Assembly: GCA_013239625.1 (NCBI GenBank)
Contig: MU053283.1
Location: forward strand, 5,530-55,220
Length of the DNA stretch: 49,691 nt
From: Lama guanicoe
Taxonomy: Eukaryota
Direction of reading: 5' to 3'
The position numbers and the translations under genes were made by a program. Below the pieces are notes generated by a model that saw nothing but the letters and a program-made list of their open reading frames with translations, searched no databases and was not told the DNA's origin. Below, in pieces: positions 981 to 39,500 of the stretch (position 1 is the first letter of the stretch; each line of letters opens with the position of its first letter).

Positions 981-1484
981 GTTGAGAACAGTAGGAGGTC
1001 AGGTTGTCCCAAAGCGCGGGTGCTATGAAAATGGTTTCTGTCTTTTTAGTAAATAAATCAATGTATTCATACTCTACTTGGTTTAGAAGATTGATAAATC
1101 AAAAAGGAAATTTCATTGTTAAAGAGAAATAAAAGTGCATTTAAAATAGTTTGTTTGTCGTAAACATGTAACAACAGTTCAGCCCCGTTTACAAAAAGAG
1201 ACATAATGTTAGTGAGTAGAAGCGAAGCCTGATGTTGAGAACAGTAGGAGGTCAGGTTGTCCCAAAGCGTGGGTGCTATGAAAATGGTTTCTGTCTTTTT
1301 AGTAAATAAATAAATGTATTCATACTCTACTTGGTTTAGAAGATTGATAAATCAAAAAGGAAATTTCATTGTTAAAGAGAAATAAAAGTGCATTTAAAAT
1401 AGTTTGTTTGTCGTAAACATGTAACAACAGTTCAGCCCCGTTTACAAAAAGAGACATAATGTTAGTGAGTAGAAGCGAAGCCTG
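981..1484. repeat. Near-perfect tandem duplication, 2 x 251 bp (981-1231 and 1234-1484)
   Basis: Copies read identically except gcgcggg/gcgtggg and aaatcaatg/aaataaatg; 2-bp spacer. Confidence 0.95.
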
Positions 1485-1987
1485 TCATCTGGCTCATTGT
1501 GAAAGCTGCCACTCTTTACAAAGGTGGTCTTTAGACTTATCTGCTAACCTCCGAATAGGGTAAACTGTACTGAAACAGAAATACAAGGGCCTTGATTTCA
1601 CTGAGCCATACTAACCTGGCATATCCTGTGTGTTCTATAGCAACAGTATCTAATCTAACCCATGATTTTATGTTTGTGGTGAGAGTACATGATTTCTTTA
1701 AAACTCTTTGTTTGGAAGTTGGCTTATATTGAAAAAAAAAAAGAGACAGAGCTGGTATAACTTAATTGTCTGAAGTGTCTCACTGAAATTATCCTAAGTA
1801 AACATATCCAAGAAATTTTCAATATTTCAGATAAAAATATTTAATGGAGAAACATACTGGATGCATCATCAGTCTCCTGCAGAAATCTCAGAACAGTTCT
1901 CCTACTCTTAGAAACAAGATGCATTTCTCTGGGGGGGATCCCAGCCTTTCAGGAAAGGCTGAGTGAAGATAATGGTCACGAGAAATG

Positions 1988-2457
1988 AGAAACTAGAAGC
2001 AGACTTACTACATGATCCAGCAATCCCACTCCTGGGCATATATCTGGAGAAAAATATAATTTGAAAAGATATGTGCACCTCAGTGTTCACAGCAGCACTG
2101 TTTCCATTAGCCAAGATATGGAAACAACCCAAATGTCCATCAACAGATGACTGGGTAAAGAAGATGTGATACACACACGTGTGTGCACAATGGAATACTA
2201 CTCAGCCATAAAAAGTAGAAATAATGCCATTTGCAGCAATGTGGATGAAACTGGAGATCGTCACACTAAGTGAAGGAAGCCAGAAAGAGAAATAAAAATA
2301 CCGCATGATATAACTTATATGTGGAACCTAAAAAAAAAAAAGACACAAAGAAGTTACCTGGAGAACAGAAACAGACTTACAGACATAGAGGACAAACTTG
2401 TGGTTACCAGTGGGGAAAGGGGGTGGGAAGGGATAAATTGGGATTTTGAAATCTGCA
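1988..2457 (+). mobile_element. LINE-1 fragment (ORF2 C-terminus plus proximal 3' UTR), relatively young
   Basis: catgatccagcaatcccactcctgggcatatat (DPAIPLLGIY), caacccaaatgtccatcaacagatga, tggaatactactcagccataaaa, gtggttaccagtggggaaaggggg. Confidence 0.9.
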
Positions 2458-2627
2458 CCCCTTGGGGAGTGATGGAAATGTTAGCTGTCTTGATTGTGGT
2501 GGTGATTTCATGGGTGTAGACATCTGTCGAAATTCATCCAAGTGTACACCTGAACTATGTGTCATTTACTGTACAGGAATCATACCACAATAAAGGTGTG
2601 GTGTTAAACAATAAAATAAAATAAAAT
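2458..2627 (+). mobile_element. Older L1 (L1MB/MC-like) 3' terminus with A-rich tail
   Basis: gatggaaatgtt...tcttgattgtggtggtgatttcatgggtgta...aataaa, followed by (aataa)n. Confidence 0.7.
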
Positions 2628-3990
2628 TAGGAAGAGAAATGCCCGCTTCATTGAAATGTATTGTTTGTAAACTCAGCAGTAAGAGCCTCTGCACGTGTGG
2701 TAGCACCTTTTCTATCCGCGTTTCCGTTCTCAGTGCGTGAAAATGAAAACGGGAGACCAATCCCCTTAGAAATACTTGCTTTGCCCTGTGCGGACAGACG
2801 CAGAGCAGTCACTGCCACCATCACAGGGTCCAGGAGGGAGCGTCTCGTCCTGCAATGTGGCTGAGCCTGGATCAGGACAGTCCCTGAGCCTTGGGAGTGC
2901 AGTGGGGGGGTCCCGGTGTGGACCTTCAGGTGTCTCCCTGTGAACTGATACGTTACACAATATTATGTAATCCCTGCACGTGGCTGATGATAAGTATCTT
3001 CCTTCTCTGGAAATAGTCAAACAAAAAAGTGTGAATCCAAGCTACATTACATTTGGAAATAGATGTGATTTACTGATTGAATCAAAGGAAATTTTGAAAA
3101 ATTTGGCCAGCCAAAATTAATTATTTACATAGGAAACTATCTAGAAAAAAAATCGTATACTAGGGCACTAAATGCATAAACTAGGACTGATCCTTCTCTG
3201 TGTTTTTCAGGTTATAAAGAAGCAAACGATATTCTTTCTGGCCCTATGGTATTTAGACCACAAGTAAGGGAAAGACAGTAGCACATATCAACCAACAGTT
3301 TTTGAAAATCTGGGGACAGAATACTAAATTTTATACAAAAATTAATTAAGCTTATGATTATTAAGAAAACGGGGGAATGATTAGCTGTTGAGAATTGTAC
3401 TATTTCTGCATTTTTCTCAAGCATCATGTGTTTTAAATAACAATGCAGATTCAGTGATTTGGGGGAAATTTAAATCTTACATTTATGGACTATTAAAATG
3501 TTTTTCTCCAAAAGAAAGATGCTCTGTAATAGATGAAAAGTGTTAGCAGTGTGTTCCGGGAATTCTTCACATGTTCTTCTAGAACGTCTCTTCCATTGGG
3601 AGTGGAGTGTGTGCAGGATCATAATTCTGTCTGCTCTGCGGTGGGTGCCAGGTCAGGCACAGGATGTGGGGAGGTGCGGGGAGCGCGCTTGGTTCTAGGT
3701 GCTCTGCAGGCGTGCTGCTGTTTGGAGCCCGTGACAAAGCCCAGAGACAAGCTGGCCACAGCGCACGGTCCTAATGTGCTTTTCAGATTTAAAAATGAGG
3801 CTCTTTTCACTGTTTTTCCTGTTCTCTCTGAATACTGACCTGAGACCATTTATTTTTCCTGTTGTAAAGGCCACTGGTTATTGAAGGCAGCTCTATTTTA
3901 CAAAAAGTAATTGGAACATCTCACTTTTAACCGTGAACTAAATACGACTTTCAACCAAAGAAGACAAGTACATGGCCCAGTACAAGTGCT

Positions 3991-4705
3991 TGTTACCGCA
4001 CCCCGGTTTTGTCCAACTGAGCCGTCCCAGCAGCTCCACCTGCCGGGCAGCGGTCCAGACACTGGGCTCATAACCAGATGAAGCTGGTTCTGGACCCAAG
4101 TTCGGCCGCTCGAAAGGCCAGTACTCGAGAGACAAGTGTTGGTGGAAAAGGAAAGGTTGCTTCATTCAGGAGGCCGGCAGCCTGGGGAGAGGGTGCATGA
4201 ATGTCCTGAGACGGCCTCCCGGGTGCCATCTGGAGGACAGAGGTTTTAAAGGCTGAGCGAGGGGGGGGCCGCGCAGGATGTGAGCAGCTCCTGCATTGGT
4301 CAGCCTCGAGGCGACGTTTCAAGCATCCCGTCTTCTGGTTTCAGCTGGTCTGGGGTCTCCGTGCTGGTGGTCAGCACTCCCACCTGGTGGAGGTCTGCTT
4401 CCTGTAAGAACAGCCTCGGAAGCTGTGTCAGACCTTCCTCTATGTTTTTCAGGGAACTGGGAGTTCGGTGACTTCCATGTGGCTGGTTCATCATCCAAAC
4501 TGCTACCAGTCCTGCCTCCCCAGCAAGTACTCTTTTTTCCACATCTTCACGTGCCCTAATTTCCTGATCATTCACTCTTGAGCGAGCCCTTTGAGTCTCA
4601 GGGGAGGCCTGGAGACAAGCTCTTCTACAAGCCAGAGGCAGACGGAGGATGTGGGGGCTGGAGGGCTCTGTTCCGGGAAGGCCGCATGGGGTCCTGCGCA
4701 TGACA
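3991..4705 (-). mobile_element. ERV1-like solo LTR relic (left boundary uncertain, 3991 or about 4086)
   Basis: tgttacc... start and ...ggtcctgcgcatgaca end. Reverse-strand order of a degenerate polyA signal (ttcatt), a TATA-like motif (ttttaaag) and CCAAT (attgg). Resembles recalled laurasiatherian ERV1 LTRs. No clean TSD. Confidence 0.55.
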
Positions 4706-7700
4706 CACACACTGTCTGTGTGAACACACATCTCATAATTGCACCAAATTATCTCCTTTTCAAAGGGCAGGAGGCGGTCTTAGGGAGTAGATGCAGAGTA
4801 ATTAAAGTACTTGTCAGAGATGGAATATTTAAGAGACTCTCCGTCTAGAATTAGTTAAATGTGATGCTATTACTTTTTTAACAACAGGTAAGTTAACTCC
4901 AATTTTCAGTCTTCCTGCTCCAGAAAAAACACCACTGTTGGTAAAAGTAAGAACTGAATGAAAAGCACTGTCAGAAAGACAAAGTCTGACTGAATGTAGG
5001 GTTTGCCGACTACTCTAAGCCTGCATTTCGTTTAAACTGTTTAAGGCGAGCAGACGACAAAACAAAGTCCAGTCATACTTTGGGTTCTTAATTGGCCCAG
5101 CAGCATTTTTGGAAGGGTTCGGTTTCGGTCCTAGCCCATTCGTCCTCTGGGCTCTGGAGGCACTGAGGCAGGACGTAGTGCTTTTCTGGTCGGACCGCTT
5201 GCTCTGGACCCGACCCTCCTCTGCCCAAACACAGAGGCTGCTGAGGAACCAGGATGCATAGACTGACAGAAGGAGGGGAGAGGACAGCGGCCGAGACAAA
5301 GCTCGGATTCCTGCTAGGGGGTGATGCTCCAGGACAGATGGGCGTTCTCAGGAAATCCAGGATAAATATAACTTGAAAAAGCATTTGACCTGGTGAGTCT
5401 CAAGCTGGATGTGCCTTTTGATCCAAGTCCATCACCTGAAAATTACCCTCAGCGTATCCTTGGAGAGTCCTCCACAGAAATTTCAGTTACAGACGAAATG
5501 ACGGGGGCACGGAACGGCTGGTCTGACATTCTCCTTATCGACAGGACAGAGGTTTCCTGTTGTTTGAATGAATGAATGAGTGAAGACTTGATTGACTGAT
5601 TTAGACCCGGATCCATTATTTTATCATATTTCACTGAATCTAAAATGTACGAATGGTGCTTCATTATTTTGTGTGACACTGAGAAATTGCTCTTTTTACT
5701 TTTAAAACACCCTTGCAGCCAAGTTTTGAAACATTCACTATGAGATGTGCATTTTGTAATCAACCGCCTGCAACAACAGACTGCAAAACCCAGCTCAGTG
5801 TAAACCTGCGTGTCACAGGCTAGTCTTACAGGGGAACAGATCACTTTTTGCAAGTTGTGAAAGGTTTTTATTTGACAAAGCTTCATATCAAAGATCATTA
5901 AAAAGAAGTTTTGCAGGAAGACAATGGTAACAATAAGGGATCCCCTTACCCTAAGTTTCCATGTCAGAAAACATGACAGTAAAACACTGGAAGTCACGGT
6001 AAGAACAAGGCAAGGCTAAATCCAGGATTACTGGAGGCTTTTATCAAATGGACTGTTAGCTGAAGCGCTTTTGAAGTCCTGTGATAGTGTCCCTCTTACT
6101 TCCATGGGTCACATGTTGCAGTCCTCAGCTTTATGCGCATGAAAGTAAAATGCACTTCACAGTGTCTGAATAAGTGACATCTTCCACGGCCAAGTGATTA
6201 CTCCGTGGTTCCCTCTTGTTAAGTCTGGTGACATTCTTACAGAGACTAATCTTCCTAATTTCGTGTTTTCCTCCTTGTAAGTAGGTTTCAATCACTTTGC
6301 TTCTCACTGGCCACCCAACTTCGGGAAAGGGTGTCAGGAGGGAGAGTTGCCCTCCGAGGATGAGATGTCCAGTCAAACTGGACGTGAAATAGTAGGATCT
6401 GTAATCTTCTGTAACGTGTCTGGAGGCGGGCCCCCCGGGACTGATGGATTCAGCCCACAGTCCCCTCGGCGGCCCAGGCGTCTCCGTCTTTCTGCTCCTA
6501 GATCTTCGCTTTCCTTCTTGAGCTCACGGACAACAAAATGTGGACCTTTACTTCAAGAAATCATGGGAAGAAACCGCAGTGACTAGACTAGAAGAAAAGA
6601 TGTGTTCTTCCTGTGTCTGTTTTATTTAACTTTTTAATTGTGAGCAAAGAAACCTGTCGCAGAGCCCCTCTACCTGGCTGCCTTCGGCCCTGTCTGGTCA
6701 GCACTGGTTACGGGCTGGTTCAGAGTCTGTCACAAGCCAGTGGACTCAGCCCAGCCAGGTGAGAGCCCTCAGCAGAGAGCAGGTGGGCCTGGGGGGCCCT
6801 GGCCCTGCAGGGCGGAGGAGAGGGAAGATGGGGCTCTGGGCTGCAGCCCTCAGAGGTTACCCTGCCACTTGCCCAGGATCAGGGCTCTTCAGTTATAGAA
6901 GGGAACAGTCTCTGTGACCTGCTGTCGAAGGTCCGGGAACTGGAGCTGGGTCGGGCAGCTCGTGGACAGGCCGCTGAGAGGGGAGCTCCCTCAGAACGGG
7001 GGACTGTCAGTGGGGTCTGAGGCCCGGGGCCACCTCTGGATGGGAAGCGGCATGGGAACGGAGAGGAGCAGGGTGTGTGGGGGGGGGCTAATCACTGTTG
7101 GGGTCCCCGGAGCAGAGAGCTCTGAAGGGCGGCTCCAGTTAGAGCCCCATCTTACCAACAGACCACAGCTGTCAGGTGAGCAAAGCAGGCAGGCTCTAAA
7201 TGGCCAAGAATTTGCTGGTTTGCACTTTTAAATAATTGGATCATGAACATTGGAGTCTACTGTCCATGGGCTTTGGCAGTAAGGGTCTCAGCCTGCAGTG
7301 GAGAAATCTGTCCGCAGCCTGGGGACAACCCCATCTGTGTGCATCTGATTGTCACCTGGGCCATCCAGCCGTCCTGTTGGGTGATGTGCACGGGGGCTGC
7401 GGATGCAGTGGTCCTCCCTGTGAGAGGGGCGGACACGTATGTAACCCGGTAGGACTCAGCCCGTCTCCCTCCTGGCCCTGCGGTATGTATCCCACCACTG
7501 CTGACAACAGCCTTGAACCAAGTGTTGGTCAAGAATTGGTCAGTTTTCACAGAGTAAAATGGTCTCCCTGGGCTGGCTGTGCCAGGTGTTGCGATAAGAC
7601 AGCTCCAGGTCTCTGGGAACTCAGAGTCCAGTTGGATGCATGTTGGTCACCTTCCGTGTGTGGGTTCAGGCCCCCAGCATCCTTCTTCTGTCTCTGCTTC

Positions 7701-8484
7701 TGCATCCTCTTTCAGTTCCTGGGGGTTTGGTCAGGAGAGGAGGGGAGATGCTGCGGAAGAGAGAAGAAAGCTCCCAGGTGTCCCCGCTTGGAAGTGGCTG
7801 CCACGTGGACTCACGTTCCACTGGTGAAAAAGCAGTATTGAGAAAACACTTCAGGTGTTTATATTTTTTCCAAGTAGCATTCTTAAATGTGTTATAAATC
7901 GAATCACCTGTGTGGAAAGCACAGCAGGGACTAGAGGGTCAGTCCCAGGATCGACGAGTGAGGAACAGAATGAATCCTGGGCACAATTCAGGAACATTGG
8001 CATGGGGCTTCCTAAGCATTTTTGGTGAGTTAATTGCCAACATAAGCTTGCTTTTGCTTATTATCTTTTTTTTTTACCATTAACATAATAGAAAAGTGTG
8101 AGCTCTCTCATTTTCTGAAAAAGATAATAACCCAACTAAAAGCTCTTAATACACCAAGTGCTTTACTTTTATAATAACTTCCTAGGGTGGAAGGCCCGGG
8201 ACTTAAGATGGACTGGAACAGAGCACGTTTTTGTACTTAAGGAAAAACAAGGTGGTGATTTGCAAGAAGAAAAGATTTTTAGGAACCAGTTGTCATCACG
8301 ATTTCTGCCTCATCATGTTTGACAGAGACTCTGGAGTGAGGCAGCGCCTTTGAAAAGGACCGTTAGGAGCTCCCAGGAACCGTCAGCCTCCCTGCCGGTT
8401 CTCAGCGCGAATGCCAATAACCTCTTGAAAGAATTGTTTCTGCATATACACAGTCTTAGGCCTGAAAATCTCAGAGATACTTAA

Positions 8485-8625
8485 TAGTAGTAGTTAAGAT
8501 GCATTGAGAGCCTTGCTAGTGGTTTGTGTAAGTCCTTTAGTTCCCATAATGACCCTGTGTGACAACTCCTGGTACACGCTTTCAGATGAGAAAATTGAGG
8601 GACAGAGGCTAAGCAGTCTGTCCCG
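8485..8625 (-). mobile_element. MIR SINE relic
   Basis: ttcagatgagaaaattgagggacagaggctaag matches the reverse of the MIR core. Confidence 0.7.
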
Positions 8626-8954
8626 TGTATTCCACTGGTTAGTGTTTTTCAGTTCCCGTGTAACTTCTGTTTGATACTTTCTTACAGTTTCTCTCTGTTG
8701 GAGTCCCACTGTTCCCCTGTTTTTCTCTCCGGTTTCAGGAACACATTAATGACGCTTCCTTGGAACCCTTTGTTAGTTAGATGGCTTATCTCAGTTCTGT
8801 TCAGTTCCTTTTCTGAGGCTTTGTCTCCCCATTTTGCCTAACCCTGTGTTTATTTCATCGTGTCGGGCAGATCCGCGACCCGCCCAGCCTTGAGGGAGGG
8901 GCCCGGGTAGGGGGCGCCCTGTGGACTTGCGTCCTTACGATGTTCTGTGTACGA

Positions 8955-9260
8955 GGTTGTGTTGTCTGCAGGTAAAGACGGTTTCACCTTATCCCTTTCC
9001 CCTCCTGATGCCTTTTGTTTATTTTTCTTGCCTCATTTGTCTGGCTAAGACCTCTCACAGTGTGGGGTGTGTGAGGGCAGACGTTGGTCTTGGGGGAAGC
9101 GTTCAGACTTTCATGTTGTCACGGTGTGACTTGTGGTGTTTGTGAAGGTGCCGTCATCAGGCTAAAGTTTCCCCTTTTATTCCTAAGTCATTTTTTTTGT
9201 TTGTTGACAATATTTGTCATGAATGAATGTCTATTGCAGTTTTTCTTTTGTCGAATGATT
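8955..9260 (-). mobile_element. Ancient L1 ORF2 (RT region) fragment
   Basis: tgtctgcagg..gacggtttcacctt..cctttcc..gatgccttttgtttatttttcttgcctcatttgtctggctaagacctc is the antisense of the L1 ORF2 consensus. Confidence 0.7.
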
Positions 9261-10094
9261 TTTCTGCATTTCTTGAGATTATCATGTGTTTTTTTCCTTA
9301 ATAAGTGTAATTTTAAAATCATGACAATTAAATGAAACTAGAATTTGGCTTTTCTCCTTTTTTTCCCCCCAAATACTAGTAGTACCACAGTGTGCTAAAA
9401 TTCAGCGGGAAATTCTCAGTTAGGGTTACAATGCCTAGAAATGGGCTTTTATAGCTCAAGTTACAATAAGGTCCAGAGACTTTAAAAACAACTGATGTCC
9501 TGGTTAAATAATTCTCATTTATAAGTCTTTTCATTGTAACCGTATGAAATTCATAAGGTTCTATTCTGAGTTCCATTGACTGAAAACCATTGTGAAGGTC
9601 CTGTCTATAGCTGCTGTAAGACCTAAATTAAGCCGACGGGTTTTAAAGTTAATCTTAGTGTGGATATAAGTTTATATGTTCACAGGTGAATTTTTAACAG
9701 AAGCATAAGTCTTAGGTGCAGTTTTTGGCAGCTTTTAGCTTTAGGTGTGATAAGCGAGGTGTCCACTTTCATTGACAAAGAGATAAAAGGATTTAATGGA
9801 TGTGAGTGAAGTCTACGTTATGTACCGAGGAGTGCAAACAGGGACTTGTGACCCAGATAAAACCACAGAAATCCGAAAAAGTGCGTTAAACCTAATCCAG
9901 CCAAGGGAAAACAATGAACTGATTTCTTTTTACAAGTGATCAATGCCGTGCTCATTGTCACGCCCAGGCCCTGGTGCCTGCAGTAATGGGTGTCCTGTCC
10001 AGGAGCCGACGTGTGTAATTACGAGCACTTTATCGAGAGATTTAAAGGTCTGACCACTCTAGTTTCCAGAGCAGTCGTCTGCCCAGGGTGCTTG

Positions 10095-10225
10095 TGAGCC
10101 ATGTGATCTTGAACAAACTGTCTAACCCCTGGTGCTCTGTTTTTTTTATTTTTAGAAAGGTAATAATAGTACCTAGTTCACAGGATTGCTGATTAAGAGA
10201 GTCAGGAATTTAAGGACTTTGCAGC
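10095..10225 (+). mobile_element. MIR SINE relic
   Basis: atgtgatcttgaacaa..ctaacccct..ctgttt..taataatagtaccta..tcacaggattg. Confidence 0.65.
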
Positions 10226-12029
10226 GGAGCAGAGACGTCACGTGCTGTGACTGACCAGATCCCCGAGTCTTCTGTTGTGTGTTTGTCAGTTACTGTTATT
10301 GTCCGTAATCGGCTGCTCCTCTTAAGTCCTTTAAACTGTTTTTCTTCTTGTATTCCATTTGTTTGATGTTAATATTGTTCTTCTGGTTTCCTTTTGACTT
10401 GAATTGCCTGTTTTGGTGTTTTTCGCTATATTTGTTTCCGTCTTTCTCAGAGCTCCTCCCCCTGATTTCATTTCCCGCCCTCGGTGTGGACGGGGAGGTG
10501 CTGACGTGGGACCACTCGGAAGTGGGTAACGTCTTTATGTTGGTTATAATCTGCTTCTCTCTGATGTTAGATTCTGTCCCCCGATATTGCCCTGTGACCC
10601 GGGCCGTTGGGGGCAGACCTGCTGGGCCCACGTCGTGTCTGACCTCGCCCTCCTGCCTTTGCAGGACGTCTGGGTGGAGGGCAGCCTGCGGGGAGGGGTG
10701 CTTCCTCCAAAGCAGAGCAGGTCTGCCTGGAGCTTCCAGGGCCGGGTTGATGTCCCCACCCAGCAAAGGGCAGGTTTGTGTCTGCGCAGCTAGGGCCCCT
10801 CCCTGAGAGGCGGCACATGACCCTGCTCTGTGTCCCCAGGCCCTGCCCCCTCGGAGCCTCGGGCAAGAGCAGGCAGAGGGCTGTCCTCTGGCTTCTCCTC
10901 CTGCTGTGCAGAAACCCGATCATTCTTACGGGCCCGAGGTCTGGGTCTTCCCCTCAAATCTGCAGAACCGTGGCAGGCTGCTTTGCAAGCAGGGCACACA
11001 TGGGGCCCTGCCCAAATCTGGACCCCAGCCTCTCCCAGGGAATGACCCTCCCAGCGGGGCTGGAGATGAGGGGCACCAGCCGCAGCCATCCTCACTGGCC
11101 CGGAGCCCAGGCCTCCCAGCTGAGGTCTCTGGCTCACACCAGACAGAGGCCTTCTGTCTCCCAGAAGTCTTGAATTTTGCTTTCTTAGACACTCTCATCC
11201 ATATGTGGTCTGACTTCTGTGGTTTCTCTCGGTTGGGTTTGGGGAAGGACTGAGTGCTTTATCGACATCTTGTCAGACCACATGGAATTTCCAAGACTTA
11301 AAGCTGGTTATACATCCATCTTAATGTAAAGAGTTTGATTGGTATATAATTTCCTTTCCAGTCAACGCAGTGATATTGTCTGGCTCCAGGAGGAGCCTGG
11401 CTTCTCAGAGAGAGAGAAAAATAACACAATTGCAGACTGGAAAATCGCAGCCTCACAGAGCATGCAGGATGCTTGATAAAAATGCTTCCTGATGGCAATG
11501 AAACTATTTAAAAATCTGCAGGGCCAAAATGTGCACACACAGAAGAGTCATTTTGGTGTGAATGGACAGAATGAATCATTCTGTTTATAGCACCAGTTAC
11601 CCAGAATGTATAAAGAGAATTGAGACAGCCCGGAGAGAAACACTTCGCAATAATCACATATGCAAGCACAGATGAAATTGTGTCTAGAAGAAGGACATGC
11701 ATATTTTAAAACCAGAAAAGAGATCGAAGGATAACATTCTTTCTTAAATATGGGCTCTGTGTATGAAAATGATATTCAGTAATTTTGAAATGACTTGCTT
11801 TTGTTTCCAAAGAGGAGAGAAAAGGACAATGTGAGTGCCAATTAAAGTGGAAATCATTTAAGTTCATTTTCTAGGTAATTACTTTATCTTAATAGAGGAA
11901 TTATTTAGTTCCTGCCAGATTACATTCGGCTTTTGTAAACCCTCTATAATTGTGAGGGTGGAGCGGCTTGACAGTGGGAAGAACGTGTGTGCAAAGCTAT
12001 GAAAAGCAGAATATGACACAAGTCATGGA

Positions 12030-12120
12030 ACTTAGCTGACTGTGGGTTTGGGTTAACAAGTCAATGTGCTGAGCCTCAGTGCCCTCATCCTGCAAATGGG
12101 CGTAATGTATCCCAGGACTG
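12030..12120 (+). mobile_element. MIR SINE relic (core)
   Basis: caagtca..ctgagcctcagtgccctcatcctgcaaatgggcgtaat. Confidence 0.5.
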
Positions 12121-15100
12121 CGCAGAAGAGACACTTGCATTGTAGGAACAGGTTTAATGTGTTAGAAACTAAGACGTGCACACCCCTTTGCCTGGTTGTG
12201 TTCTGTGTGTGGTAGTGTTTGTGGTGGACCCGGTGGTTTGTGCAGAATTTTGTAACAGTACCCGACGGATGGTTTTCGCTACTAATAAATATCTAGCTAC
12301 GTGCAGTGTCAGGATACATTCACTTTCATTCTTGTGGTTGAGCAGCTCTGTGGTCACAGTCTGTTTTCCTGGTTGGTAGAGATATGTGTTCAGTGATGCT
12401 CTGATAATACGTACAGGAGGTGCTTCCCCGAATCAGCTGTATTTCATGGGTTCTGAGGGGAAAATATTTCATCATGAAGCTTGTAAATTGAAAAGTTTTT
12501 CCATACTTTTCCTAACAACCCCTTTTGTATCAGTACACATGTGTGCAGTTAAAAAATACCTGTGTTTTTTATTTCCCTCAAATACATGGATATGTAATGT
12601 GCTTTATATGTTATCATTATGTATGTATTTATATGTTATAAAATGCAAAGTGTATATAGTATATCTTTATTATAATTATAAAATGACATCCATTACTCTA
12701 ATTTATCCCAGTCATATTTCTGCATGCTCTCTGTGGACGATAGTCCCTCGCTGGAATGCATTATTATTTCAGGAATGAACGTTTGGGGACAAAGGTCTAA
12801 TTGCTATGCAGTATTGTTTCCAAAGTCAATGCCAGCCACTTGAAGGGAGCCCAGCACCTGAGCCAGGCCCCACAGAGGTGCTGTGTCCTCACTGTCACTG
12901 CCCGTCTGTTCCGTAGAGTCCCAGGTGTGACTGTGGCACTGGCGGGACACTGTCGCGACCTCCCGCGGGAAACACTGCTCATCTGTCCGCACGGCCGCTG
13001 TCGGCCCTGGGGGTGGGACACCAGCGGTCTTACCAGTTGTGGCAGGACATTGGGATCAGAGGCACTTCATGAAAATGTAACTTGATGTAAATCATTGAAG
13101 GTTTGTGGCACACGCATCGTGGACAGAATGTGTATGTGGAGCGTCAGTCTGAAGCAGTGCGAATGAGCATCAGTGCTTCCCGGGTTTATGTTAATTATCT
13201 CGTGAAATGGAGTCATTAGAGTAGAAGATTCACTGTGTTTCATTGAAGAGGATCAAAATGCATATGTGTATTAATTTTGTAAAATACACCCCACTCGCCT
13301 CCCATCCCCCATACTAGCAATGCCTTTTAGGAAGGCATATCATGAGTGAAATTAAAGACGTAATAGTGTTACTCTGGTGTATTTGCATGTGAGTATGTGT
13401 GTGTGTGAACTTTTAAAGGTAAACATTAAGATTTTTAAGTACAAAATTGAATTCATCCCAGTGAAGAATTATGATCCAATGGCAGCATGGCTCAAAAAAA
13501 AAAATTCAATGTTGTACTATTGATATATTTTGAATATTTTAGTTGAACTAATACAAACAGAAATGCAATATAAACAGAAACACTGTTTCTAAAAACATAA
13601 TATATCACCAGATGTGGAATGTGTAACCTCACGTTTGCAGGGAAAGTGTTTGTGTTGAATTATCTGAGTGTGACAGCTTCTGTCATGTGAAATCTCTGAT
13701 CATCAGCATGCTTCTCTAGAGGGAGTATCATGTGTGCCAACTTACTTTATTTTTCTGGGAATGAAATACAAATATTAACATCACTTTCCCTATGAGGCTG
13801 ATTAATTTGAATTTAAATTTGAACACTGAAGACTTAGCTGAGAGTGAGTTGATGTTGGGTCACAGGACATAGGCTAGCGTAAGGACCGTCATGATGGAGG
13901 GAGCTTGGTGAATCGTGTGCTCTGTGATGCTTTCAGCAAATGAACGACGGGAGGTGAGTTTCAGTGAACTTGTTAAATCATGGATGTTGCAGAGATCCCT
14001 GTGACCTGGTATGGTTTTAAAACATTGAAATATAATAAAGTGGAGTTTTCACCCAAAACAGAACTATTCTATTACTCTTAGTAAGGCTAATGTGTTAAAA
14101 TAACAGCGATCCCTTCCAGCCGTTGCCGTGGGGTGGGTGTTTCCAGCTCAGCGTCACTCGGTGTTTCTAAATTTAATGACCACAAACCGCTTACCTTTCC
14201 AACCTCATTGTCGGGGGTGGGGGAGGCATGCGTGCAGGGGAGGGAGAGCTGTTCCTGCTACAACCGCAGGGCGACCCTGTGGGTGGGAGGGCTCGCCCTG
14301 TGCGTGGGAGGAGGTCGGTGTGTGTCTGTGCCGAGACAGGGCCAGCCATGCACGGGGTCTGGTCACAGAGCTCGTGTCTGGTGGGGATGCTCGTGTGGAC
14401 CAGCCGAGGGCCCAGCCACCTCCCACTGTCGGGGTCTCTCTCTCCTACGTCGTATCAGTCTGTGTCTACATCCACGTAGCGAGGTGAATGTTTCTAGCTC
14501 TGTTGTACAGGTGAGCACTTCAGAGAAAAATTTGTGTGAATAAACCCAGGATTTGAACCTCATCTCTGGCTCTGGCTCTGGCTCGTGGTTAGTGTAATAA
14601 ACTCAGATGTCTGTTGAGACGCTGCGTGGACTGAGCTGTTACCTTCATTCTCGAATTAGCCAGAGGATGGTAATGAACGCTCAGCAGAGGAGGATCTAGA
14701 GATTAGGAGTAAGATGGAAAGATCAGCTAAATGCGTTTGAATTCGCAGGTTTTCTTGTCTCTCTGTATCAGAAGCAAGTTTGTATACATTTACTAACAAC
14801 AGATATTTGTTGAGAAGGTCGTGGTAATCAGGGGTGTGCTGTACTGACTCTCATCTTCAGGGGGGCAGAGTGGCTTTGCTTCGTTCGAGGACTGATGGCG
14901 TGTTTGCTGGTCATCACGCAGAAGTGCCCCAGCGCTTGGGAACCCACCCCGCAGACAGCAGGGACTTCAGGTCGTGTGAGGTGGTCCTGTTCCAGGGAAA
15001 GGGGCAGAGACACGGAAGTCCAAGAAGGCAGATTCTGGTTTATGCTGCTGTCAGGAGGTGAGATGCTAGGCCACACAGCAGTCTAGGGATGTGGGATCTT

Positions 15101-18100
15101 AGGAACAGGGAGCCCGGAGGGGCGGCTGCAAGCTCTCACCGTGACGACATCGCCCGGCTGGCGTGCTCCGCTGGAGGAATAATCACCTTCACTGCTCTCG
15201 CCTGCATCTGAGGGTCGGGGAGTCCCTGCTGGGGGGTCTTGTCTGGAAACACACGGGCAGGCCTTCTGGGGTGGGGTCCACGTCTCCAGGCCCCACGGTA
15301 CCACGGAGAACGTGAGAGGGGTGGTCCTGGGTTGCCAGCGTCACCATGGTGCTGTGATCCCATCGGGACTAAGACATCAGAGAAAATCTAAAGGGAACGC
15401 TCAGTGCCCATGGGAAGAAGATTTTAGGGCCAAGGAAATACTGTATAACCCAGGTGCTCTCTGGGATCAAGAATTAGAACATGTATACATTCTGGGAAGG
15501 AATACAGATAGTAAGAAGGACTTCTTTCCTTCTAATCTGAAGACTAAAACAGTTGAAATAAGCGATCATTAAGTGTTTAATTTTTTTTCTGTTATGTGTC
15601 CCACCTTAAACTGTAGTGTCCGGAGAAGAAATAGCAGAAACGAGTGTAGTCAAAAGGGTACTGTGGAGTGCAGTGTCGTCTGGGCAGGACACAGCAGGTC
15701 CTGCGTTCACACTGAAGATTCCAGCAGGTTGTACCCTGCAAGGGGGAGGCTCATGACCACAGCCCCTGTCCCCGGAACACGCGGCAGACGTGGGCAAACC
15801 TCTCTTTCCTCCAGAATCCGCCATTTCCTCCCAGCTGACTTACGGCCACCTGGCCCCACAGCTGGTGACGTGGCCCCTGACAGTCTGTGACTGGCTTCCG
15901 TTCTCCAGACGTGGTGCCACCTGACGACAGCTTACAGGTGACCTGGCACACTGAGCAATGCGGTACAGACGCTTGTCTGCCCAGAGCACCTGGCTGGATT
16001 ATCATTCACTTTGTCACCTGACACAGGTGTACTCCTGAAACTTCCCTGAGTCAGTGTTGCGAGCACGATTTGTGCTAACACATCTTCACTTTAAATAGGC
16101 TGTGGTTTTAATTTTTGGTAAGGTCCTGAATTTTAAAGAGTATTTTGGGGCCACCGAATCTTTTGCATCGTGCAGAGAGTGTATATTGTACTGTAGTAAT
16201 CTTGTGGTTACATTTGTATGGTCTGACTTAATAGATGTGAAGGTTAATCGCAGCTTGACTAAGGTAGCAAAGTTGTTCAACTGTAGAGAGTAGACTCTCC
16301 TTAATCCTAGTAGTGTATACTCTAAGGCACACCAACTGTAATAAGAAACACTAATAATCCAATTTTAGTTCTTAAAATGTTGCTAAAATTTTTGTACCAG
16401 ATGTAATATATTCACATTTGATGTCTGTAGTAGCAATAGAGTTTAAGGTTTTAAAAACAATACTTCACTTGATAAATATTTTCTCAAGAAGTCATCACTG
16501 AATAACTTAGCTCATTTTCATGCAGAATAGAAGCCTCATCTCCCATCTGGGGGCAACTCCTCTTAATTATGTGTAAATTGTCAAAGAAATAAACAATCTC
16601 CAAGCAGATGACCTTGTTAAGACAAAATTATTTGCTTAAGGCAAACTGCAAAAAAAAAAGAAGCTATAAAGTGCATAGCATCACTTATTGCTGGTCATCA
16701 AAGTCCTCTGTTTATTCTTGAGGTCTCAACAAAGGCTGAAGCCTTGTGGACACGAGGACTTTTCCTGATGTGTGGGTTCAAATTAAAACGTGACAAGTAC
16801 TGACTCTTCCTATGTCGTTTGTGTACATAATATTTAAATAGTAGTAAAGTGGTAATTAAGAAAAATAGAGCTATATGTTAACAATATTGCATAATTTAGC
16901 CATTTTTTGGTCAACATATTTTTAAAAACAGTGCTTTTCTACAACTCTCAATTACCTTTGAATCCAGGACAGGGACTGTAAATTCATCAACACTTTATTG
17001 TACTTTCCTACAAACAGCAGGTCTATTCTAATGCAGAATTAAATTGTATCTTTTACTCTGTGAGGAAGAAACTGATTACACTATTTAAATAGTATTTCCT
17101 GTAGCAGATTTTCTTAAATATGTATTTGTAGTGTTTTGTGAACTTAAAGGTTCTTCTGCCTGTTTCAGACTTTCATGTGTTAAACTTGCAAAGCCAGTCA
17201 GTTTTTATTACTTCAGATGATTGCTGAAGGTACCCACTTTGGCACATGTGGCTTGGTTTTTACCCTGCAGTGATTCTCTTAATGGCTGGAAGGACTGATT
17301 TAATAGCAGACATACCGTCTATTAATACTATGCAAGAGTGAAAGCAGGTTCCTGAATGGAATCCATCTGATTAAATATGCACTTTTTGATTACTGTCTAA
17401 TCTTCTGTGACCTCTAATGTCTGTCTTTTGCCATTAAAGATTAATCTGCCAGTCTATCAGATAAAATAATAATCTGAATAGATCAGCCTTCTTCACCTCA
17501 TCTGTCAAATCAGATAAAGACTTATTTTTACTGCTTGCAGATTTATATGTGACCGTAAAATTACCATCCAGCAGGAAAGAAAACTGTTAGAATACTTGCA
17601 AAATATATGGATTATCAAATCAAATATATTTTCTGGGTGTCTCAAATTTGTCAGACCCACAAAAGGAGAATCTCAAAGAAAAAAATTTTTTTAAAATAAA
17701 GTAATGCTATAGGTTCCTTTGATTTGTGTATCCTTCCAGCCAATAGCTTTTGAAGTCCTGTGTATCATCAGTGCAGTTGTGCTGTGCAGAAGATCAGGGA
17801 CTCACAGCAGACGTGAGAGGTGTGGAGTGCCGTGTGCGTAGTGCATGGAGCATCAGTGTCGCAGGGAATATGGTTCTGTGACAGAAAAGGTAGTTTTGAT
17901 GATACTGTGTTTATCACTCTTAAAGATGCCTCCTGGTTGAAAGCATATTAACATTCCTGATAAATTATGCAGAAATGAATCTGTTCATAACATTTCAGCT
18001 CTGTTTTATTAAACTCTTTGAGCCTTCATGAAACAAAATGTAATACTTCACGAAACTGGGATCCGTGAGACCTGTGAGCCGTGGTGGAATTTACCATTTA

Positions 18101-18369
18101 ATTAGTGTGTTTTCCCTCACGCTGGCAGGGACTAGAAAACCACTTATAAGCACCTGGAAATGTTCACTTTCCATCACTTTCTTCAATAAACAATTATGAG
18201 GGATCATTTTGAGGATATTTAATGTTTGAAATGCAGAAATGTATTAAGATTTAAAGTTTTTCTGACACCACACGTTTGAATACAACGTTTTCACCGGCAC
18301 TACATGGGTTTTGGGCGATTTGTCCATCCTGTGACGCTGGTCATTCCTGCGAGCCCAGCGCACACCTGC

Positions 18370-18720
18370 TGTCGGGTCCAAGTGCGCATGGAGGCCCTGA
18401 CCCGGGTCCCAGATGTGGCTGCATTTGGAGACGGGCCCTCTGGAGAGGATGGCCCATTTGGAGATGAGGTCCTGTGGGTGGCCCTTGTCCGGGGTGCCAG
18501 TGTCCCAGCAGACGGGCAGGTTAGGGCACAGTCAGTGCAGACCAAGGGACGAACATGTCACAGCAAGAAGGCGGCCAGGCCATCCGCAAGTCCAGGAAGG
18601 AGGCTGCGGGGACAGGCCAAGCCCGCTGGCCCGTGGTCTGGGACTCAGCCTCGCTGAGCATCCCTGTTGGGCGTGGGGTCCAGCGGGTCCTCAGACCCAG
18701 CAGGTCACAGTGCACTGCTG
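18370..18720 (+). mobile_element. MaLR LTR (MLT1A/B-like), heavily GC-shifted
   Basis: gaggccctgacc..atgtggctgcatttggagacgggccc..atgaggtc..gggtggccct..cacagcaagaaggcggcc..gcaagtccaggaaggaggc..gactcagcctc follows MLT1 motif order. Confidence 0.7.
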
Positions 18721-19194
18721 CACTCAGCCTGCCCATCCCAGATGGAGAGAGTGATTTAAATAAGGGCCCTTCGTCCCGAGAAGCTGCTGTGAAGTTTCCC
18801 CCTGTCTCTCTTAGAGAACTTGGTGGTCTGTGGTTTCCTCCCAAGTGCGGGGCCGCTGGGAACTGTGAGGTTTCCTCTCGTTAACTCTGCAGGGAGCCCG
18901 CGTTTGACGCCAGCCTGCATGTGTATTTGGACGAGCCAGATAATCCGTCTCCTTGCTCTTTGCAGAAGCACAGATTAGTAGTGATTCTAGGCATGGAATT
19001 GCAACAGGCTTTTCGGTTATATTATTATTAGATGTTACAGATGAGTTCAAGTTGAGTGTGACATGTCATCAGTAGAAATGACCAGCAGGTGTTTGAAGTC
19101 TCAAGTACGTTGATTCAGGTACTTTAGCTTAAAAAGGGTTGACACCGCCTGATGATCATTCTCCTCTCAGCCTGGGGACAGAAACAGCTTTATG

Positions 19195-19306
19195 TCAGTT
19201 TTGTGGGACAAGGACACCCAGCAGCTGGTCATCTTGAGGCCGTTTGGCTCAGTTTTGTGGGACAAGGACACTCAGCAGCTGGTCATCTCCGAGGCTGTTT
19301 GGTCAG
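19195..19306. repeat. Two-copy 54-bp tandem repeat
   Basis: tcagttttgtgggacaaggacac(c/t)cagcagctggtcatct..gaggc(c/t)gtttgg at 19195 and 19249, followed by tcag. Confidence 0.9.
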
Positions 19307-19711
19307 GATGCTGCCATGTCGCCTGGTCCTGTTCAGTTGTTCCTACTTTGCAGAGTCAGTGGGTGACGGGTCCCCTGTCCCTGCTGCCCAGCTGCCACCG
19401 GAGGCTGATCCATGGACACGTCCCCCCTTGTGTCTGAACAAAATGCCTCAATAAAACACCCCCAGCCTCAGGCTGGTCCTCAAAACGCAAGGTAGCTGTG
19501 AATCAGGGAGTTTCAGATGCTCTTGTGAACATCAGTGTTCTTTAGCGGCTGCAGAAATTGTAGCTTATGTTTTAATAAAACTACACGATTGATGGCAATG
19601 CTGAAGGTTCATGGTTTCACTTCCATAGTTTATCATGTAAAATTTTTAGTGTGACTGTAATTCACAGGACACTCTGACTGACCTCACCTTGATGAGGAGC
19701 ATTCTCTAAGA

Positions 19712-19751
19712 TGTCTGTGTGTATCTGTCTGTCTGTCTGTCTGTGTCTGTC
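19712..19751. repeat. (TGTC)n/(TG)n low-complexity tract
   Basis: Direct reading. Confidence 0.7.
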
Positions 19752-20879
19752 AGAGGATCTGGAAACAGTTTGCCTGACTTTGACTTTGAGCAGCAGAGAC
19801 AGGGCTCCTGTGGTCTGTGTAATAGTGTCCCTTCCCGAATCCTGTCTCTCAACTACAAAGCCTGTAGGAGTTGCTTACTGAGCTTTTTAAGAAAGAAATA
19901 CTTTAAAGTTGCTCAGCCCTGCTCTGGAATGAGACGTGCCTGTACTTTATAATTAGGAAGTTGTGTGATGCGTGTGTGAGCATTTGCATCTACGTGCGTG
20001 TCCTGCTTTAAATTTTGTGTTCCTCTTAATGATGAACTTCTTAACTGTATGGATGTCTCAGAGCGGCATGGGGTGGAAGTCCCAGGTTAGTGCCCCCCGG
20101 CCACTGCTGAGGGCCAGTTGGGTTGCCAACACCCTCGCTGTTACAGGAGTGCCGAACAAATGCTGTTGTACAGTTTACGTAAGTTGTACGTGTGGAGTGT
20201 GCCTGTAAGAAAATTTTTAAGAAAGACAAATGCTAGGTGAAGGATTAGACTGCATTGCAGTTAATTTTTGAAGGAAATTTAAGTTTTTAAATTTATTTAT
20301 TACCATCAACAGAGGTATCAGCACACGATTCAGAAGGAAAGGAGAGATCCTCACACCACTTTCCCCCGTCGCTGTCCCCTAACTGGAGATGCCATCTCGC
20401 TGCCCCATCTCTTCCTCCCGGAGACGCGGGTCTCTGGTCTCGGCATCTGTGTGCGTAGGACGCCCTTCCTTCGGGTGGGCTCCGGGCTCCCGCGCAGCAC
20501 TTTGCGGGCTAAGCAGGTGTTTGTTGGTGCAGAGCGACCGGGCTGACAGTCCTGTTCACACTGAGGGAGCTGCACACCTGTCACAGCCTCAGCCGGACCT
20601 GATCTCTGACTCCTCGAAGCTCGTTGGTTCCCCTGGGTAAAGAGTGTGAGGAGTTCCGTGACTGACCCCTGACCAGCGGCTTTCAGACCTGCTCCCCCAC
20701 CACGCATTGGCCCCCAGCACGTGTGCGGGCCCTGTCCTCCTGGACATCCTCGCTTCTCCGTGAGGTCTTCCATCGCCTGTGTCTCGGCCTCCCCATCTCC
20801 AGTCTCCGCCGTGTCACATCTTCCAGCAGCTCCCGGGGAAGTCATGTGGGTGCTTAATCTGGGGATCTTGTCTCTTTAA

Positions 20880-21160
20880 AATATCTTGAACTTTTGGTTC
20901 CACCTGATTTTTCTGGATATAGGATCCCAAGTTTAAAATATGAGTAACTTTCCAGTTGTTTTTCTGCCTGTCAGTGTCAATATTGAAACGTCTGAAGACA
21001 TCGACTCCTTATTCTGTGTGAGTTTCTGATGCAGCTTGTAGAATCTTCCTCTTTGCCTCCAGGGTCCTGAAATGCCACAGCGATTTGCTTTTGTGCGTCC
21101 TCCTTTAGGCTCTGGGAGGGTCCTAGGAATCTGGAGTTTATTTCCTTTAATAGTAGGAAG
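20880..21160 (-). mobile_element. Very old L1 (L1ME-like) fragment
   Basis: ctggatataggatcc..agtt, cagcttgtagaatcttcctctttg..cctgaaat and aatctggagttta resemble antisense old-L1 ORF1-region sequence. Confidence 0.45.
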
Positions 21161-22225
21161 TGGTCTTAAGCTCTTAATTCTATTGCATTATCCTATACTG
21201 CACTTCATGTTGTGCGCGTCACATTATATATCCTGTAATATCATGTATATAGGTATGTTAAGCGCCACATAACACTTACCATCGTGTAAATCGCTGTTTT
21301 TCAGAAAAGGCACAGGAAGAGCTCTGCTAACAAGCTCTTAGTCCAGGACGCTGCATGTTAGCTACTTGCAGAGGAGTTAGGTCTGTGGTAACAATGGAAT
21401 TAAGTATTTCTTATATTTTCAAAATATCTTGGTGACAAACTCCTGAATTTGATATACTGTATTCTAGCATTGGGCTCACACACAGATACACATACATATG
21501 TATTTATAAAATGTATTCTGCTATTTTTATTGCATAAACTGTTTTAAAGAACATAAATATTGGTAAATAACAATATTTTTTAAAAGAGGAATCAAGTTCC
21601 AAATGTCAAAATTTGCTAACACCTTATTTTTACAGCAGAAATATGCCATTTTCTTAAATATTTTACACTCTTTCCTAATGTCAAAAAGATAGCTCTTCCT
21701 TTTCTGTGTTCAAAAAAAATATGTAGGATTAAACCAGATAAAAATGGCCTCTGTTTATAATTGATAATTCCTCTGTATATTGAATGTACTAATGCAGGTT
21801 TTTAATTGAAAGCTGTTGTAATAGGTGGAGCCGGTAATAAATATGTAAGTAATCATTTGCAGTTTTCAATCCTTTATTTCCCCGAATAATCCACCATCCT
21901 CCCATGACGGGTGTTCAGCACGTAAATATTACAACTCAATTTATGTGATGTTAACAGCAAGAGCCTTAATGGTGTGTTTTATTGCAGCAAAGGGTGGAGG
22001 CAGAATTCTTCTCATAATATTCCTTTATTAAAGGAATTGTTCTTGTTACATTGCATCTTATGTCGAAACATATTTCGTTTTTGAAAGCAAAACAGTTAGC
22101 AGTTGTGTTACATCTTTTCTTTTGGTGGTTGTTGCCCTTTGGTTGTTGGCGTCTTTGAGAATGAGCACTGACATTACGTATTATGCCAAGTCATTCTTCA
22201 GGATCTGTGTTGTCTCTGTTTTCAG

Positions 22226-22345
22226 CGTGCAGTGCCCTGGAGCTCAGGGAGGTGGCCAGCAGACTGCGGGACTGGTTCAAGGCCCTTCACGAGAGTGGAG
22301 GTCAGAACGCGGACAGCAGGGCGTCCCTGCGGCTGGAGCGAAGCA
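22226..22345 (+). CDS. SPOCK3: SPOCK3 (testican-3) internal coding exon, start of the extracellular calcium-binding (EC) domain; 120 nt, phase 1-1
   Basis: Acceptor ttttcag and donor gtaagg. Translates (A)CSALELREVASRLRDWFKALHESGGQNADSRASLRLERS(R), matching recalled testican-3 ACSDLEFREVANRLRDWFKALHESGSQN...ERSR. Splices in frame to 29459. Confidence 0.95.
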
Positions 22346-29458: not shown

Positions 29459-29680
29459 GATTTGATACCGGTATTTTGCCAATTTGTAAGGATTCACTTG
29501 GCTGGATGTTCAACAGACTGGACACCAACTACAACCTGCGCCTGGACCCGTCAGAGCTGGGCAGCATGTACCTGGACAAAAACGAGCCATGCGCGGAGGC
29601 TTTCTTCAACTCCTGTGACACGTACCGGGACCACTGCATCTCCAACAATGAGTGGTGTGCCTGCTTCCAGAGACAGCAAG
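29459..29680 (+). CDS. SPOCK3: SPOCK3 EC-domain exon with two EF-hand loops; 222 nt, phase 1-1
   Basis: Long pyrimidine tract ending ctttag; donor gtacag. Translates FDTGILPICKDSLGWMFNRLDTNYNLRLDPSELGSMYLDKNEPCAEAFFNSCDTYRDHCISNNEWCACFQRQQ. NRLDTNY, KNE and FQRQQ are testican-3-type residues. Confidence 0.97.
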
Positions 29681-34416: not shown

Positions 34417-34479
34417 ACCCACCTTGCCAAACGGAGCTCAGCGGTCTTCAGAAGCGGCTCGGGGTGAAGAAGTTTCTGG
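34417..34479 (+). CDS. SPOCK3: SPOCK3 exon, start of thyroglobulin type-1 domain; 63 nt, phase 1-1
   Basis: Acceptor ttgcag and donor gtgagt. Translates (D)PPCQTELSGLQKRLGVKKFL(G), matching recalled DPPCQTELSNIQKRQGVKKLLG. Too short to appear in the ORF track. Confidence 0.95.
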
Positions 34480-36748: not shown

Positions 36749-37246
36749 ATGGAAGAAATATATCAGAAACCCTCCTGCTTAACAGGAAGGGGTCATATTT
36801 AAGTCAGGTTTTCAGTTGCAAGAGGGAGGGAAGGGGAGAGGGTTCCGGATGAGGAAGAGATTCCTGTGGAGATGAAGTCTTCTGGGTCTGGAGGAAGCAG
36901 CAGCTTGACGTGGGGAGAGCTGGGGGTGTAGGAATGACAGTCTGGGGAGCGAAGGTCGCAGGTGGCCATGCACCTGGTCTGGGGGACTGGGGGTTACGGC
37001 ATCCGTCAGATTCCAGTTCTGGGTGTCCTGCCCCTGAAAACGGCACCTTTGCAGAGTGAGGAGAGGAAAGACAGGAGATTTCTCAGCTAACGACACTCAC
37101 AGTGGCAGTTCCTCACGACGAGGGCGGGGCCCCAGCTGCTCTGTCCTCCGGGCACCACCGGCTCCCCGCCCAGGGCCGGGCCCACGCGTGCCTGGCTGAG
37201 TGACCCGAGGAGGGGCACCAGTCACTCATCACGGTGTGTCTTGCAG

Positions 37247-37366
37247 GGCAGTACATCCCCCAGTGTGACGAGGACGGTTACTACAAGCCCAGGCAGTGCC
37301 GCGGCGGCGCTGGGCCGTGCTTGTGTGTGGACAGATACGGAAACGAGGTGGCGGGCGCAGACTGTG
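37247..37366 (+). CDS. SPOCK3: SPOCK3 thyroglobulin type-1 domain exon; 120 nt, phase 1-1, divergent
   Basis: Acceptor cttgcag and donor gtaaga. Translates (G)QYIPQCDEDGYYKPRQCRGGAGPCLCVDRYGNEVAGADC(A). Confidence 0.95.
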
Positions 37367-39336: not shown

Positions 39337-39500
39337 CTGTTGACTTTGAGACCTCGGGAGATTTTGCAAGTGGAGACTTCAGAGAGTGGGCCGGTGACAT
39401 GGGCGAGGATGGTGTGACACGCGGTGAGGATGAGATTGGAGACGAGGAGGAGGAGGAGGGAGACGATGACGATGGCGGGGACCAGGACGGCTACGTGTGA
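39337..39500 (+). CDS. SPOCK3: SPOCK3 terminal coding exon: Ser-Gly glycosaminoglycan attachment motifs, acidic tail and TGA stop
   Basis: Acceptor tttcctaag. Translates (A)VDFETSGDFASGDFREWAGDMGEDGVTRGEDEIGDEEEEEGDDDDGGDQDGYV*. TGA is at 39498-39500. Confidence 0.93.

Follow-up and report, generated by a model that had tools for sequence, protein, structure and literature searches.

The locus raises the question of whether a thyroglobulin type-1 (TY) domain has been remodelled in an otherwise intact gene. The window, i.e. the whole stretch of 49,691 nucleotides from Lama guanicoe analysed here, carries a TY exon in which the hallmark motif CWCV reads CLCV and six residues are missing between the fifth and sixth cysteines. 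The explanation that we consider probable consists of two layers, namely a camelid-wide truncation of the TY loop of SPOCK3 and a degenerate CLCV motif that most likely occurs only in a South American duplicate of the gene.

The SPOCK3 exons of the window

The best named matches of the TY exon in a homologue search were testican-3/SPOCK3 proteins, with camelid sequences at the top, and the identification of the gene as SPOCK3 in the earlier note was thereby confirmed for the window exons. The window contains the final five coding exons (Table 1), which join to 228 codons plus a terminal stop codon and are free of disabling lesions (stop codon, frameshift or broken splice site), all splice sites being canonical. 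An EC domain, the TY domain and an acidic tail with two Ser-Gly sites were all found in the deduced product; both of these glycosaminoglycan sites are retained in the last exon, where the acidic tail shows many replacements of Asp/Glu by Gly. No match to a signal peptide, the N-terminal region or a follistatin/Kazal domain was detected in the window, whose upstream part is intron only.

Table 1. Features of the SPOCK3 copy in the window
Feature	Position	Strand	Remarks
TY-domain exon of camelid SPOCK3 copy	37247..37366	+	120 nt (outgroup 138 nt), with Cys2-Cys6
TTG (Leu) at the CWCV Trp position	37321..37323	+	diagnostic base 37322
18-nt deletion junction	37354..37359	+	camelid-wide; six residues lost behind the loop Gly, among them the conserved Ser/Thr-Arg
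First SPOCK3 coding exon in the window	22226..22345	+	start of the EC region
EC (EF-hand) exon	29459..29680	+	three changes private to the window copy
63-nt exon with TY Cys1 (PPC)	34417..34479	+	precedes the TY exon
Last coding exon	39337..39500	+	acidic tail, stop codon
Intron, collinear with a Camelus SPOCK3 intron	1..22225	+	without upstream SPOCK3 exon or duplication edge

The TY exon translates as QYIPQCDEDGYYKPRQCRGGAGPCLCVDRYGNEVAGADC, is bordered by a CAG acceptor and a GTAAGA donor and matches the Pfam family PF00086 (Thyroglobulin_1) with 54.1 bits at a cut-off of 20.6. The description of a 120-nt exon with intact splice sites, a CLCV motif and all six domain cysteines distributed over two exons proved correct: the cysteines occur in conserved order, the first in the preceding exon and the other five in the TY exon, and the Cys5-Cys6 spacer comprises 12 residues. 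DNA alignment with a bird-type exon from a metagenome contig (L001) revealed a single 18-nt gap and identical splice boundaries, in agreement with an in-frame deletion of six residues; this one exon served as the DNA outgroup, the metagenome scan having yielded at least 59 loci with a best identity of 76% to a pig-like query among the matches listed. The human SPOCK3 sequence given in the earlier note agrees with the gorilla protein P0070.

A microhomology origin of the 18-nt deletion, which had been suggested from the letters at its junction, is not supported by the sequence. The repeat GGCGGGCG is present at the junction; it belongs to a set of three tandem 4-mers found over 689 exonic bases and to the seven short tandem matches of the TY exon. 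A microhomology-mediated deletion leaves one copy of the repeat and not two, and two copies remain here; moreover, the ends of the gap in the distant bird-type outgroup share at most one or two matching letters.

Distribution of the deletion and of the leucine codon

The deletion, and with it a Cys5-Cys6 loop of 12 residues, was found in all 11 camelid database proteins (dromedary 3, Bactrian camel 3, wild camel 2, alpaca 3) and in none of the 172 matched non-camelid SPOCK-type sequences, a set from pig, warthog, cetaceans, carnivores, primates, birds and fish that includes redundant isoforms and a small number of SPOCK1 sequences; isoforms that skip or lack the TY exon are unmatched and hence lie outside these counts. 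The non-camelid spacer measures 18 (168/172) or 19 residues (4/172), and the Trp of the motif is invariable (172/172). Both the shortening of the spacer from 18 to 12 residues and the lineage restriction proposed for it are therefore borne out, and in the alignment across camelids, pig, cetaceans and primates neither change was seen outside the camelids.

The CWCV Trp is retained in 10 of the 11 camelid proteins. The sole Leu protein is the alpaca 'testican-3-like' model XP_072807679.1 (P0089; 243 aa, contig 18,127,519), whereas the full-length alpaca testican-3 XP_072808643.1 (411 aa, contig 26,422,752) keeps CWCV. The earlier view of a single remodelling of the domain thus holds with respect to the existence of both changes but not to a joint origin, as the deletion is camelid-wide together with CWCV and Leu occurs in one alpaca model; judged from this distribution, the two changes appear to have separate histories. 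Both alpaca models are already in RefSeq. XP_072807679.1 is known as an automatic RefSeq model only, and a literature search, with most subscription papers outside its reach, found no published account of it or of camelid SPOCK3; the accessible parts of PMC6598621 and PMC7288448 and of the main text of bioRxiv 10.1101/2025.08.28.672513 contain nothing relevant to this locus.

Ruminant SPOCK3 proteins were absent from the matches listed (84 and 120 rows), whereas pig, cetaceans and camelids occurred among them; the gene may have been lost in ruminants or may lack annotation there, and none of the 14 titles listed in the literature search for cattle SPOCK3 dealt with cattle. Additionally, many bird, bat and hamster models (P0157, P0159, P0161, P0163-P0173) skip the TY exon in frame, so that SPOCK3 isoforms lacking most of this domain are widely predicted.

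Examination of sequencing runs

Of 24 listed sequencing runs, four were examined, namely the DNA runs X1, X9 and X11, which stem from three studies and carry three organism labels, and the RNA run X15; the small-share RNA runs X17-X20 and 16 others were left out. The contigs of all three DNA runs contain no alternative letter at base 37322 and lack the 18-nt insertion, and over 37000-38027 the number of differences from the window is 0, 1 and 1, respectively. Logan contigs collapse or drop variants, so that the absence of a variant cannot be inferred from them, and their depths (34, 157 and 54) were not taken as copy number. The alpaca model XP_072807679.1, which comes from a source with one residue different from the window, is identical to it across the TY exon. 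Since the Leu base is present in all three DNA runs, it is not an assembly error, and neither a TGG codon nor the restored 18 nt, either of which would have spoken against the changes, turned up in the contigs of these DNA runs. That both changes are assembly or sequencing errors might be suspected from the draft-assembly marks in the window (a gap of 84 N and a near-perfect tandem of 253 bp), but their reproduction by independent DNA contigs and by an annotated alpaca model makes this practically inconceivable, and assembly error was excluded as their source.

The RNA run X15 is of the Camelus type, as judged by an upstream loose end and intron differences. It provided an exon contig of 121 nt that has G at 37322 and lacks the insertion, and a GT..AG joint 37365>39336 at depth 125. 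Accordingly, the deletion form is spliced with the Trp kept. No RNA with the Leu base was seen in this run, which by its Camelus type is uninformative on the Leu form. A homologue search with the EC exon returned no camelid sequencing-run open reading frame among 78 matches.

Further differences between the window and the runs were observed in this region. Five A residues of the last intron (38969-39267) are G or C in most or all covering run contigs, including those of the Camelus-type run, and all three DNA runs have a 4-nt insertion at 38488. These differences are either private to the window copy or haplotype, or errors.

Origin of the leucine form

The translated window differs from XP_072807679.1 at one of 228 residues, an Asp/Glu exchange in the acidic tail, and is otherwise identical to it over the five exons, including CLCV and the short loop; it differs from the full-length XP_072808643.1 at 7/228 residues. 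The two alpaca models are separated by 6/228 residues, compared with 9-11 between alpaca and Bactrian camel, and at each of the six separating positions the window agrees with the -like model. Six differences are many for a pair of alleles (rough p 0.008-0.08 under assumed dates). Four of them are private to the -like form and lie at sites that are invariant in 13 outgroups: Ser>Gly (29470-29472), Asp>Asn (29533-29535), Leu>Arg (29539-29541) and Trp>Leu (37321-37323). By analogy to the numbering in PMC7763218, Asp>Asn corresponds to position Z and Leu>Arg to position -Y of EF1, which the same source, as far as accessible, describes as the only calcium-binding EF-hand of testicans. By chance, all four private changes would fall on invariant sites with a probability of 22%, so that their location is compatible with drift and no proof of it.

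The full-length camelid testican-3 proteins (alpaca XP_072808643.1, Bactrian camel XP_074211641.1 and dromedary XP_064338586.1) share the deletion, the stem changes and the EC-TY-acidic tail order with the window, but keep CWCV, Ser59, Asp80 and Leu82 (P0089 numbering), and in contrast to the -like form they possess the N-terminal and Kazal parts and are encoded on another contig. The P0089 model lacks the Kazal domain, and its first 14 residues are intron sequence just upstream of 22226 (from 22183). With an intact parent on another contig, known from the RefSeq alpaca annotation, and with its introns retained, the copy shares two traits with duplicated (unprocessed) pseudogenes; as no lesion is present in the five exons, it was classed as a duplicate under relaxed constraint and not as a proven pseudogene. 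A neutral copy diverged by about 1% stays lesion-free 40-48% of the time at the assumed indel rate, so that the open frame says little on constraint. Short models starting in the same intron exist for camels as well, and the dromedary one equals the full-length sequence over 229 residues (P0003 versus P0004); a short model is therefore no proof of a partial copy, and the 5' truncation of the -like copy is taken from the RefSeq annotation alone. These data qualify the earlier notion of an otherwise intact gene: frame and splice sites are open and canonical in the last five exons, but the intactness of the Leu-form gene is doubtful in view of a 243-aa match without the Kazal domain, its location on another contig and three further private changes.

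The run contigs bear on the number of Leu copies. No Trp-bearing contig was found in X1, X9 and X11, where contigs collapse variants. For a copy pair in a 1:1 ratio with at least five differing sites per kb, a contig path as clean as the one observed has p ~0.001, and with two sites 0.14. This counts against a simple duplicate, and the reading as a duplicate needs several Leu copies or near-identity of the copies in this region. It may be that Leu copies are more numerous than the parent or that the common allele is Leu. In the latter case, Leu would be the common allele of the full-length South American camelid SPOCK3, the two RefSeq loci would represent two haplotypes or one mis-split locus, and the TY domain of the working protein would combine the short loop with CLCV. 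This reading accords with the single contig with T at 37322 in each of the three DNA runs, with 0/1/1 other letters over about 1 kb, with the undamaged frame and splice sites and with the occurrence of short models as annotation artefacts in camels. We nevertheless regard it as unlikely, because the two alpaca models reside on separate multi-megabase contigs and are 6/228 residues apart, compared with 9-11 between alpaca and Bactrian camel, and because the absence of Trp is not demonstrable from Logan contigs that drop variants. A weak hint from synteny points in the same direction, as the full-length alpaca gene is located on a 26.4-Mb contig and the Bactrian gene on one of 26.35 Mb.

The duplicate might alternatively have been retained as a functional truncated unit, either an EC-TY-acidic tail protein or a regulatory transcript, in which the replacements in EF1 and CWCV modify the binding of calcium or of proteases. 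The 228 open codons, the coding RefSeq model of 243 aa and the Leu base common to three organism labels would fit this assumption, but the absence of the Kazal domain, the intronic origin of the first 14 residues of P0089 and the fact that an open frame is expected by chance (40-48%) make it very improbable. There is likewise only a small chance, somewhat above that of the common allele, that the CLCV short-loop form is the predominant, expressed SPOCK3 TY domain of South American camelids, be it a common full-length allele or an amplified and transcribed truncated copy. It would then represent a natural mammalian TY domain without the signature aromatic residue and a third of the last loop, evolved in two dated steps, in the camelid stem and subsequently in the South American lineage.

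We favour the duplicate under low constraint. After the camelid-wide loss in the loop, the 3' part of SPOCK3 would have been duplicated in the South American camelids, probably more than once, and the window would contain one such 3' copy without signal peptide and Kazal exons. Lacking these exons, the copy would be under little constraint and would have acquired the four changes at invariant sites, including CWCV to CLCV, which is expected to weaken the domain core. Of this scenario, the 5' truncation, the presence of more than one Leu copy and the lack of function are inferred.

Extra copies of genes have been described in the same lineage and elsewhere. Alpaca-specific dispersed gene fragments, comprising NEK10-like, FMN2-like and ABHD17A-like blocks that are absent in camels, were reported in PMC13751797 and resemble the window as fragmented extra copies beside an intact parent; SPOCK3 is not named among them in the accessible part of that article, and the window copy has no frameshift or stop. 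A second SPOCK3 locus was observed in cetaceans (right whale XP_061034759.1 and narwhal TKC33609.1; models P0119, P0137 and P0158), where the duplicate lies on another contig as in alpaca. In the right whale, each of two contigs carries a full-length SPOCK3 model, and the second copy, unlike the window, is of full length and keeps the 18-residue loop; the second-type model of the narwhal has the motif CWFV and lacks segments. Cetacean SPOCK3 thus seems to be duplicated, presumably independently of the camelid gene.

The Leu change serves mostly as a warning that what looks like a remodelled gene in alpaca or llama genomes may represent an additional copy, with consequences for both annotation and read mapping. 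The significance of the findings as a whole is modest and would be greater if the Leu form proved to be the expressed gene.

Consequences for the TY domain

The window domain scores 57.9 bits against PF00086, compared with 60.8 for the alpaca Trp form and 74.9 for pig (cut-off 20.6). In a survey of 319 distinct TY domains from 93 of 130 representatives, including two artefact spacers (1 and 2) caused by extra cysteines, the residue between Cys4 and Cys5 was W in 285 cases, F in 25, Y in 4, another residue in 5 and Leu in none. The aromatic residue of CWCV is present in the full-length camelid genes and replaced by Leu in the window, whose domain is therefore called TY-derived and non-canonical. 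CWCV is placed at the core of the TY fold in PMC7863939 and PMC10889554, from which it would follow that Leu destabilises the domain.

The loop length is 16-22 residues in 274 of the 319 domains. Shorter loops occur in the 16-repeat TY protein P0287, where 14 matched repeats include loops of 13 (ten), 12 (two) and 9 residues (one) whose register equals that of the camelid loop. With the deletion, loop positions 11-16 are gone and the V-D-x-x-G-x-E hairpin stays; among 293 loops, Thr/Ser occupies position 11 in 88% and Arg/Lys occupies position 12 in 66%. The AlphaFold model of P0089 displays the same strand pattern as that of the warthog protein P0099, except for a bridge at warthog residue 282 within the deleted stretch. 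It superimposes on the saxiphilin TY domain with Z 8.2 and an rmsd of 2.0 A over 58 residues (pLDDT 65-77) and on IGFBP-1 with Z 8.0, compared with Z 10.0 for the warthog control against IGFBP-1 (control range Z 9-10). The p41 fragment (1ICF) is outside the best 50 structure matches listed for the P0089 model and within those for the warthog control. The predicted fold appears to survive the shorter loop in these models, which are driven by the alignment and do not allow the effect of Trp>Leu to be judged. In the favoured reading, the shorter loop would still allow the beta-hairpin core and the three disulfides to form, while the conserved Ser/Thr-Arg return segment is lost, so that the camelid TY domain would be trimmed and not destroyed.

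In comparison with the thyropins and TY type-1A domains, such as p41 (1ICF), saxiphilin and testican-1, the window shares the six cysteines, the PF00086 match and the predicted fold, but these domains have an aromatic core residue and not Leu (0/319) and a loop of usually 16-22 and not 12 residues. In p41, according to the cited literature as far as available, the active site is blocked by loops one and two, and loop three contributes contacts on the primed side. Most TY domains have not been shown to inhibit proteases, tight inhibition of a cathepsin through three loops, the mark of the thyropins (MEROPS I31), being reported for p41 and the testican-1 TY domain. With respect to testicans, the accessible sections of PMC7763218 report inhibition of cathepsin L for the TY domain of testican-1 and not of testican-3; the statement in the earlier note on testican-1 agrees with this, and its application to testican-3 is an extrapolation.

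Substitution rate and base composition

In a tree of constrained topology, the distances from the Laurasiatheria node to the tips over this SPOCK3 region were 0.29-0.31 substitutions per site for camelids, 0.17 for pig, 0.13 for dolphin, 0.08 for pangolin and 0.004 for the carnivores lion and bear, with the acidic tail aligning poorly; camelids accordingly form the longest branch. Of 22 changes on the camelid stem, 15 are directed toward GC-rich codon classes and 3 away from them (p=0.0075), and eleven are located at outgroup-invariant sites; rate and direction were derived from protein changes and codon classes. The GC3 content of the window coding exons is 0.72, compared with an intron GC content of 0.38-0.47. 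A pattern of this kind is described as a product of GC-biased gene conversion in PMC8336415, whose supplement lists SPOCK3 accessions only, and such conversion is a probable cause of the camelid change. The functional SPOCK3 of the camelid stem would thus have lost six residues of the Cys5-Cys6 loop as one of many changes in a fast-evolving protein, mostly toward GC-rich codons, with GC-biased gene conversion together with weakened selection as the most likely cause. Mice deficient in testican-3 are reported to be viable and fertile, their brain anomalies being stage-specific (PMC7763218, citing earlier work), which fits weak constraint.

The deletion could also represent an adaptive change of TY binding specificity, positively selected together with the nearby changes His>Arg, Gln>Pro and Thr/Met>Arg. 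It removed a conserved element, i.e. the Thr/Ser and Arg/Lys positions 11 and 12 of the loop, it was retained in both Camelus and alpaca along with the Trp and the six cysteines, and it is accompanied by the eleven stem changes at outgroup-invariant sites. However, the changes extend all over the region with a bias to GC-rich codons, pig and cetaceans are accelerated as well, the mutant mice are viable and fertile (PMC7763218), and cathepsin inhibition by the testican-3 TY domain was not found in the consulted portion of the literature. We therefore give this possibility little credence and retain drift under GC-biased substitution and weakened selection as the preferred cause.

SPOCK3 with a shortened TY loop, camelid-wide and spliced, provides a natural variant for probing the role of this loop, the same segment having 18-19 residues elsewhere, from fish to primates, in the sequences examined. 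Moreover, SPOCK3 would illustrate the drift of a conserved brain proteoglycan under GC-biased substitution.

Several further changes were observed in the camelid proteins. The TY helix exon of Camelus (P0091, P0004 and P0096) shows Asp>Ala, Leu>Arg, Gln>Arg and Gly>Glu at outgroup-conserved sites, which indicates that the domain kept changing after the camelid split. In the EC exon (29459-29680), all camelids have an extra cysteine (Leu/Ser>Cys) just before ISNNEWC, possibly a free thiol as far as the sequence tells, and Ala in place of an invariant Tyr. Full-length camelid SPOCK3 proteins (P0092, P0091 and P0004) carry a deletion of about eight residues before the Kazal domain compared with pig, in a part of the gene outside the window.

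Other features of the window

A 253-bp tandem duplication of 99% identity at 981-1484 is typical of assembly overlap. Downstream of the stop codon, a 73-nt direct repeat of 78% identity (40348-40420 and 40937-41009) flanks the 84-N gap (40708-40791) and would, by its sequence, be an old internal duplication of the 3' region. Finally, positions 1990-2457 and 48829-49269 contain copies, in opposite orientation and 79-88% alike, of one interspersed repeat that we take to be LINE-like.
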